A stretch of 14,562 nucleotides of DNA from the UHGV virus genome UHGV-0177146, one strand, 5' to 3'. How positions within the stretch are numbered: the first letter of the stretch is position 1; each line of letters starts with the position of its first letter. The notes beneath the pieces are model-generated. The model was not told the origin of the DNA, did not search any database, and worked only from the letters and a program-made list of their open reading frames with translations. Below, piece by piece: positions 14,315 to 14,392 of this stretch. The translations under genes were made by a program, and so were the position numbers. The DNA comes from a virus.

Positions 14315-14392
14315 GTTCCAGTATCCCAATTGGCAGAGGATGCAAGCTCAAACCTTGTACTAGTGACGGTTCGAATCCGTCTTGGAACACCA
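14315..14392 (+). tRNA. tRNA with anticodon CAA (Leu-type anticodon) but class I length (75 nt), CCA encoded
   Basis: Acceptor GTTCCAG/TTGGAAC, anticodon arm GCAAG-CTCAAAC-CTTGT, perfect T-arm GACGG-TTCGAAT-CCGTC, A73; short variable loop. Confidence 0.6.

Follow-up and report, generated by a model that had tools for sequence, protein, structure and literature searches.

Can a tRNA with a leucine anticodon dispense with the long variable arm and still be a leucine tRNA? In textbooks and recent reviews, this arm is treated as universal for tRNA-Leu outside animal mitochondria. The question is raised by positions 14315-14392 of the virus genome UHGV-0177146 (14,562 nucleotides, analysed as a whole and referred to below as the window), where an earlier note, made from the sequence alone, had pointed to a class-I-sized tRNA with the anticodon CAA and had called it an anomaly. 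That word holds only in part, since the gene is indeed unusual when set against the textbook bacterial tRNA-Leu, but its kind is common in phage tRNA arrays. We consider it quite probable that 14315-14392 is a functional phage tRNA-Leu(CAA) of class I shape, that is, with a short variable loop.

The gene and its class I fold

A tRNA-Leu(caa) is called by ARAGORN at exactly 14315-14392 on the + strand, with the anticodon at tRNA position 35. The general tRNA model of Rfam (RF00005) matches 14315-14389 over its full length (model positions 1-71) with 43.6 bits, against a gathering score of 29, and its alignment gives the same cloverleaf and the same anticodon as ARAGORN; the score is among the lowest in the array. 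The parts of the gene, together with the array and a second short gene discussed below, are collected in Table 1. The acceptor stem has seven pairs, the last of which is a G7.U66 wobble, and the D stem is formed by U10-A25, C11-G24, and C12-G23, with the loop AAUUGGCAG reading A14 A15 U16 U17 G18 G19 C20 A20a G21. Another wobble, G27.U43, is found in the anticodon stem. The variable loop has 6 nt (the usual number being 5) and no stem, so that the stem-bearing arm of more than 10 nt that is a hallmark of class II tRNAs is absent, and at the sequence level its U48 is the partner of A15 (trans-Levitt pair). The perfect T arm, the good acceptor, the anticodon loop CTCAAAC, A73, the length of 75 nt, and the lack of a long arm listed in the earlier note are all correct.

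Table 1. Features of the short tRNA-Leu(CAA) gene and of its array (positions in the window).
Feature	Position	Strand	Basis
Complete tRNA-Leu(CAA) gene, 75-nt body plus genome-encoded CCA (78 nt)	14315..14392	+	ARAGORN, Rfam, class II Leu model
Acceptor stem, 5' strand GUUCCAG (partner 14382-14388)	14315..14321	+	Double-sided changes at 7/7 pairs; 96.1% of cells paired
U8 A9 (A14 is the partner of U8)	14322..14323	+	U8 invariant in 37 homologues and absent from the search pattern
D arm, 3-bp stem UCC/GGA, C13.A22 mismatch, 9-nt loop AAUUGGCAG	14324..14340	+	Comparison with leuX/leuQ; covariation
Anticodon arm, stem GCAAG/CUUGU, 7-nt loop CUCAAAC	14342..14358	+	Double-sided changes at 5/5 pairs
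Anticodon CAA (codon UUG)	14349..14351	+	ARAGORN and Rfam alignment
Short variable loop ACUAGU (6 nt), ending G47-U48	14359..14364	+	Aligns to the 'gU' preceding the T stem of class II tRNA-Leu
T arm, perfect 5-bp stem GACGG/CCGUC, loop UUCGAAU (U54 U55 C56 G57 A58)	14365..14381	+	99.5% of cells paired; double-sided changes at 4/5 pairs
Acceptor stem, 3' strand UUGGAAC	14382..14388	+	Covariation
Discriminator A73	14389..14389	+	Sequence; near-invariant in short viral Leu genes
Genome-encoded 3' CCA	14390..14392	+	Sequence
tRNA array, 19 genes including tRNA-Leu(CAA); Ser and Tyr genes keep long arms	11475..14473	+	ARAGORN, Rfam
Short tRNA-Leu(UAG) of the same array	13736..13813	+	ARAGORN; model R1, 47.2 bits, rank 2

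When the two short leucine genes of the array are folded as single sequences, their minimum-free-energy structures are not cloverleaves, and the z-scores are weak (-1.5 for tRNA-Leu(CAA) and -0.3 for the other gene). Missing the cloverleaf in single-sequence folding is common for tRNAs and is uninformative. Homologues were therefore gathered, and the covariation analysis supersedes the folding. A scan of viral contigs with a pattern composed of the leucine-type D loop, a leucine anticodon, and a short variable region gave at least 120 stretches in very diverse contigs. From the matches listed, 46 unique short tRNA-Leu(CAA) sequences were obtained, 52-99% identical to 14315-14392, and 37 distinct ones were aligned with the latter as the first row. 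In this alignment, the cells of the class I cloverleaf hold standard pairs in 97.0% of cases, compared with 56.5% in shuffles and at most 45.7% when the partners are slid. Compensatory (double-sided) changes occur at 19 of the 20 pairs, and the covariation score of 1.05 (0.24 in shuffles) was reached by 0 of 500 shuffles. The three pairs of the D stem are 98.2% paired, each of them with double-sided changes, and A14, A15, G18, G19, and A20a are invariant, although they were partly fixed by the search pattern. The four-helix class I cloverleaf of 14315-14392 is supported by covariation far beyond chance. The earlier claim of a genuine class-I-sized tRNA, as opposed to a folding artefact, is confirmed in this way by the Rfam match (43.6 bits) and by the covariation in 37 homologues, which also sustain the fold and the anticodon assignment that were to be checked with covariance models. 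An alternative fold or a misassigned anticodon is ruled out by the covariation and by the leucine-only covariance model described in the next section.

Leucine identity

The identity set of the leucyl-tRNA synthetase (LeuRS) of E. coli comprises A73, U8-A14, A15-U48 as a trans-Levitt pair, G18G19, A20a, U54-A58, G18:U55, and G19-C56 (PMC9976931, PMC6614811). In fact, A73 is the major determinant of leucine identity in this bacterium, the anticodon and the long arm are not required, and arm-less truncated variants of tRNA-Leu stay active (PMC9976931). Every nucleotide of the published set is present in the phage gene, a statement that concerns the sequence level and not the three-dimensional pairing, and the anticodon CAA at 14349-14351 is of a leucine type (NAG or YAA). 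The acceptor stem has U3-A70 and not the alanine-specifying G3.U70. The layout of the D arm matches exactly that of the host genes leuX and leuQ, with a 3-bp stem, an N13.A22 mismatch, and a loop of the form AAU(U/C)GG(C/U)AG, and G47-U48 stands directly before the T stem as it does in those two genes.

This resemblance can be put in numbers by means of a covariance model trained only on 43 long-arm (class II) tRNA-Leu genes, leuX and leuQ included (model R1). With this model, tRNA-Leu(CAA) ranks first among the 19 tRNAs of the window with 53.5 bits and the other short leucine gene ranks second with 47.2 bits, while the best non-leucine gene is a tRNA-Thr (46.3 bits) and the tRNA-Tyr and tRNA-Ser with true long arms reach 37.1 and 27.8 bits, respectively. 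The score of tRNA-Leu(CAA) with R1 is even higher than with the general tRNA model (43.6 bits), despite the penalty for the deletion of the arm. For the near-identical Leu_CAA of Sf14, a Moogle-like phage, the published tRNAscan-SE isotype scores are 49.1 for leucine and 36.1 for the next isotype, and its anticodon loop is the same CUCAAAC (PMC12482277). The leucine isotype thus stands under covariance models, both by the first rank with R1 and by the published Sf14 scores. On these grounds, the gene can be regarded as a putative tRNA-Leu minus its variable-arm hairpin, in which the class II-type D arm has been kept.

Genome and array context

The array region shares 98% identity with Enterobacteria phage UAB_Phi87 and has matches in 345 phage records, for the most part of Felixounavirus from Escherichia, Salmonella, and Shigella; the array is that of a Felixounavirus, a Felix O1-like phage. 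The Val-Leu-Arg segment is at least 99% identical across 156 phage records, and the gene is already annotated as tRNA-Leu (UUG) in JN225449 and OL656108. No match was found in 5,426 complete E. coli genomes searched, which rules it out as a gene of the host or of a prophage in that set. The spacer to the preceding tRNA-Val-CCA is just 1 nt long, and the one to the tRNA-Arg that follows measures 5 nt; promoter-like TTGACA sites are located at 11328, 11419, and 12845, and 18 of the 19 ARAGORN calls in the array end in an encoded CCA. Enzymes related to tRNA were looked for in the window and none was found. The codon UUG is used 11.4 times per 1000 codons in the phage genes, with an RSCU of 0.87, so it is not enriched; likewise, the p-value reported for UUG enrichment in Sf14 is 0.98 (PMC12482277). 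Since UUG is enriched neither here nor in Sf14, a simple compensation of codon bias is unsupported and fails to explain the carriage of this tRNA.

Several other features of the region have been observed. Two 'gaps' of the array contain tRNA-like sequences that score below threshold or weakly: 12338-12388, with 22 bits against RF00005 and a clean T arm GCGAAGGTTCGATTCCTTCAC, and 13298-13372, with 23 bits. Both remnants may be decayed tRNA genes. The tRNA-Ser(UGA) at 13392-13481 has the lowest Rfam tRNA score of the array (31.1 bits), its ARAGORN call ends in CGCC instead of CCA, and its counterpart in phiEa21-4 is annotated as 'possible pseudogene'. The gap between Leu(CAA) and Arg(ACG), which covers 14393-14397 in the window, has insertions of about 110-180 nt in several relatives (e.g., 3654-3831 of locus L003), and in Moogle a small ORF is annotated within the insertion, in overlap with the Arg gene. 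In Salmonella phage Sl26 (locus L006), the tRNA-Leu(CAA) gene is tandemly duplicated (3428-3504 and 3506-3583) and the first copy ends in AA, not CCA. The public records of UAB_Phi87 place several 'hypothetical protein' CDSs directly over tRNA genes, and mechanical ORFs on the - strand of the window (11554-12933) match them; these overlying CDSs and ORFs are probably spurious. Directly upstream of the array, the ORF 9894-11309 (+) has DUF2828 and DUF7788 domains and is annotated as 'vWFA protein' in relatives. An ORF of this kind also adjoins the arrays of UAB_Phi87 and UAB_69, and Moogle has an ORF at the corresponding place ahead of its array. A Ro60-like reading of the DUF2828/DUF7788 protein was considered and dropped, a sequence search of solved structures having returned no relative. 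Farther away, the protein encoded at 6682-7815 (-) has three immunoglobulin-like domains and the adjacent 6218-6682 (-) encodes a phage lysozyme, both of them ordinary phage genes.

The second short tRNA-Leu of the array

The earlier note had also mentioned another short tRNA with a leucine anticodon in the same island, and this gene is indeed there, as tRNA-Leu(UAG) at 13736-13813, second in rank with model R1. The two genes are not close paralogs, which answers the alignment check proposed at the time: at 52%, their identity lies under the 56% averaged over the array, and out of 18 neighbours each is only the 15th-16th for the other. A recent duplication as their common origin is ruled out by this low identity. 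Both are instead separate members of a widespread family of short tRNA-Leu genes. The tRNA-Leu(UAG) is irregular in several respects. ARAGORN has to allow 3 nt between its acceptor and D stems, the acceptor is displaced by one base in the Rfam alignment, there is a U.U mismatch in the anticodon stem, and the R1 score of 47.2 bits is only 0.9 above that of tRNA-Thr. In one public record it is labelled 'tRNA-OTHER, pseudo'. It has no sequence relationship with the UAG genes that occupy this place in the arrays of Moogle and Sl26, an indication that the gene may have been replaced.

Distribution of short tRNA-Leu genes

Short tRNA-Leu genes are by no means confined to this array. In those of Moogle, phiEa21-4, Yersinia phage P778, and Salmonella phage Sl26, every tRNA with a leucine anticodon (UAG, CAA, UAA, or AAG) measures 77-79 nt with CCA, while the tRNA-Ser (90-93 nt) and tRNA-Tyr (83-88 nt) of the same four Ounavirinae-type arrays have kept their long arms. 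Counting the window, all leucine tRNAs are short in five Ounavirinae arrays. The CAA orthologue of Erwinia phage phiEa21-4 differs in the acceptor, anticodon, and T stems, yet all of them still pair. Another example is Escherichia phage 4MG (Vequintavirinae, host K-12), with two short leucine tRNAs that have A73 and U48 and no long ones. Klebsiella phage KpS8 encodes both forms, with one tRNA-Leu of each, and coliphage T5 and the T5-like Vibrio phage Cody have leucine tRNAs with a long arm only.

On a larger scale, 118 viral loci contain, among the matches listed, 154 short and 57 long leucine genes, and in these same listed loci the long arm is present in 90 of 91 serine and 37 of 39 tyrosine genes. 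The short viral leucine genes, among the matches listed, have A73 in 153 of 154 cases and U48 in 152 of 154, and neither position formed part of the search pattern; the near-invariance of both nucleotides in these 154 listed genes implies selection by LeuRS. The combination of A73, U48, and a leucine-type D loop occurs, among the matches listed, in 99% of the short leucine tRNAs, 89% of the long ones, and 9% of the non-leucine tRNAs. When the same portion of the collection was scanned without regard to gene length, about 25% of the listed leucine genes were short, and in loci with 10 or more tRNAs the proportion was 39%; both values are estimates from the matches listed, require an AAUUGG D loop, and assume that the initial 30 loci of the earlier scan were also covered by this one. 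These values suggest that the short kind makes up a quarter or more of phage tRNA-Leu genes, as judged from the matches listed.

Short leucine genes are also present in bacteria. A scan of bacterial genomes gave at least 166 of them, with A73 in 162 and U48 in 163 of those listed. Among the matches listed, 77 bacterial loci with a short tRNA-Leu have this single tRNA and belong mostly to Actinomycetota, while another 29, from other phyla, are arrays with 4-34 tRNAs. Single chromosomal genes with A73 and U48 have been observed in Nocardia, Mycobacterium, Corynebacterium, Rhodococcus, Gordonia, and Bifidobacterium, and arrays of 4-34 genes with a short tRNA-Leu in Acidobacteriota, cyanobacteria, Planctomycetota, and Polyangia (loci L218-L337). 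The D arm and the NCAGU variable loop of these bacterial genes closely resemble those of the phage genes. With regard to previous reports, the paper on MenT3 implies a short tRNA-Leu in M. tuberculosis, as it names tRNALeu-2, -3, and -5 as the long ones. For phages, no description of a short tRNA-Leu was found in the open-access literature, an older report in a subscription journal being possible, and the variable arm goes unmentioned in the Felix O1 genome paper and in the Sf14 tRNA paper (PMC12482277).

Proposed working and rival explanations

The gene, its fold, its conservation, its leucine-type architecture, and the distribution of its family are observations, and from them we infer the following course of events during infection. 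The tRNA-Leu(CAA) would be transcribed as part of the + strand array and cut from the precursor by RNase P, its CCA end being already encoded in the genome. The host LeuRS would then charge it with leucine by reading A73 and the tertiary core, and not the anticodon or a long arm, and the charged tRNA would decode UUG. As for its origin, it may derive from a tRNA-Leu that lost the variable-arm hairpin and kept the class II-type D arm, and it would belong to a large family that extends over phage arrays, bacterial arrays, and the chromosomes of Actinomycetota. The loss of the arm in leucine tRNAs only fits with the fact that, of the three synthetases acting on class II tRNAs, LeuRS is the one for which the arm plays no part in identity. 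Crystal structures of E. coli LeuRS complexes show contacts of the variable loop with two residues of the C-terminal domain, K809 and R811 (PMC12360207), and in Aquifex the deletion of the arm lowers the affinity; therefore, the charging of a short tRNA may be less efficient.

A reading that extends this explanation, and does not exclude it, is that the loss of the arm is itself a selected trait. The short tRNA-Leu would still be charged and would escape host or competitor factors that read the arm (toxins, nucleases, or quality-control enzymes), so that the decoding of UUG and CUN would be sustained when the host tRNA-Leu is attacked or degraded. The loss is specific for leucine and recurs in unrelated groups (Ounavirinae, Vequintavirinae, and many uncultured contigs), and the short form accounts for 39% of the listed leucine genes in large viral arrays. 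With UUG not enriched, codon supply alone is a weak rationale, and the anticodon loop differs from that of the host at positions 32 and 38, a type of change that has been linked elsewhere to nuclease evasion. Nevertheless, Enterobacteriaceae are not known to possess any factor that reads the arm and targets tRNA-Leu, and MenT3 prefers tRNA-Ser to tRNA-Leu. The arms kept by tRNA-Ser and tRNA-Tyr in the same arrays have a simpler account, namely that the arm is required by their synthetases but not by LeuRS, and the chromosomal short tRNA-Leu genes of Actinomycetota indicate that the form exists without a context of phage defence. We hence regard adaptive loss as unlikely. If it were true, the short form would be a device for anti-defence or independence from the host and not the result of neutral streamlining, and the LeuRS of E. 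coli would charge a natural short tRNA-Leu, against the published view that it charges the long form only.

Two further readings have been considered. According to one of them, a tRNA with a leucine anticodon would be charged with another amino acid, or not charged, and would act as a recoding or decoy tRNA. The class I size is atypical for a bacterial tRNA-Leu, the short tRNA-Leu of Streptomyces is not charged by E. coli LeuRS (PMC6614811), and for many tRNAs of the Sf14 phage group the best score comes from a non-cognate isotype model; all three leucine tRNAs of Sf14 are nevertheless 'consistent', with leucine as their top model (PMC12482277). The phage gene is moreover the top match of the leucine-only model R1, contains all the E. 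coli leucine determinants, has U3-A70 in place of the G3.U70 of alanine, and belongs to a group of 154 listed short genes in which A73 and U48 are near-invariant. Among the other synthetases that accept tRNAs with A73, most recognise the anticodon, and CAA would be the wrong one for them. Taken together, these points make mischarging or a decoy role very improbable. The other reading, that of a decaying pseudogene or of an artefact of the fold or of the anticodon assignment, could appeal to the Rfam score, low relative to the neighbouring genes, to a minimum-free-energy fold that is not a cloverleaf and has a z-score of only -1.5, and to the 'pseudo' flag of the sister Leu(UAG) in one record. 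It has to face the strong covariation in all four helices, an identity of at least 99% in 156 records with orthologues in other genera, an intact encoded CCA, and invariant nucleotides at the tertiary interactions. Effectively refuted by the covariation and by model R1, it hardly deserves any credence.

Significance

The gene had already been annotated, and short-loop tRNA-Leu was well known from animal mitochondria and from Streptomyces coelicolor (PMC6614811). In bacteria, Streptomyces is the only exception that has been studied, and it has been described as rare and dependent on a special synthetase (PMC6614811). The phage gene differs from that case by the combination of U48, a conserved A73, and a host synthetase of the E. 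coli type. In well-known phages of E. coli and Salmonella, namely 4MG and the Felix O1 group, there are short tRNA-Leu genes that retain the full E. coli identity set. The gene described here is apparently ordinary in function, and it exposes a phage trait that is apparently common and under-described. This trait provides a natural substrate for the question of whether an E. coli-type LeuRS charges a tRNA-Leu without the arm, and whether A15-U48 is decisive for it. It is also of practical relevance for annotation because short tRNA-Leu genes receive low scores or 'pseudo/OTHER' labels, and it bears on what phage tRNA arrays are selected for.

Comparison with known systems

The closest reference in the host is leuX, the tRNA-Leu(CAA) of E. 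coli, which has the same anticodon and is 63% identical to the phage tRNA. Both leuX and leuQ (tRNA-Leu(CAG)) share with it A73, U8-A14, A15-U48, the 3-bp D stem with the N13.A22 mismatch, the 9-nt D loop with A20a, G47-U48 ahead of the T stem, and a T loop of the form UUCGA(A/G)U. On the other hand, the variable region has 6 nt in the phage tRNA but 13 nt in leuX and 15 nt in leuQ, with a stem in these two, the anticodon loop is CUCAAAC instead of the UUCAAAA of leuX (a difference at positions 32 and 38), and the stem sequences are unrelated to those of both host genes.

The type I tRNA-Leu(CAA) of Streptomyces coelicolor has the same anticodon and also a short variable loop, of 5 nt as compared with 6 nt in the phage tRNA (PMC6614811). 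Five nucleotides have been reported as the minimum for good activity of a type I tRNA-Leu (PMC6614811), so that the phage tRNA, with a leucine anticodon and 6 nt, has the features of this short-loop type. The Streptomyces tRNA coexists in the cell with long-arm tRNA-Leu and a single LeuRS (PMC6614811); similarly, leuX and leuQPV of the host E. coli are long-armed, and the phage tRNA would join them during infection. The mode of recognition seems to be different, however. The Streptomyces tRNA has C48, A73 plays no part in its identity, and it depends on a special leucine-specific domain of LeuRS (PMC6614811), whereas the phage family has U48 and a near-invariant A73 and does not fit this type of recognition. 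In addition, the Streptomyces gene is chromosomal, and the phage gene enters hosts with an E. coli-type LeuRS. It has been shown that E. coli LeuRS failed to charge the short tRNA-Leu(CAA) of Streptomyces (PMC6614811), but this tRNA has C48 and is therefore without the A15-U48 pair, so the failure is not directly transferable to the phage tRNA.

Other arm-less leucine tRNAs are the engineered minimalist RNAs derived from E. coli tRNA-Leu, which also lack the long arm, depend on A73 and on the tertiary interactions of the D and T loops, and reportedly keep their activity with E. coli LeuRS (PMC9976931). These are laboratory constructs, some of them without an anticodon arm, whereas the phage gene is natural, conserved, and provided with a complete anticodon arm. 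In animal mitochondria, human mt-tRNA-Leu(UUR) has a short variable loop as well, with A73 and A14 as identity elements (PMC9976931). Mitochondrial tRNA-Leu is nevertheless loose and rich in mismatches and has a dedicated mitochondrial LeuRS, while the phage tRNA has canonical bacterial D and T loops. Finally, the tRNA-Leu of coliphage T5 is also a gene of a phage cluster, but it has 85 nt and a long arm; the presence of only long leucine genes in T5 and in the T5-like phage Cody may be the reason why the short form went unremarked.
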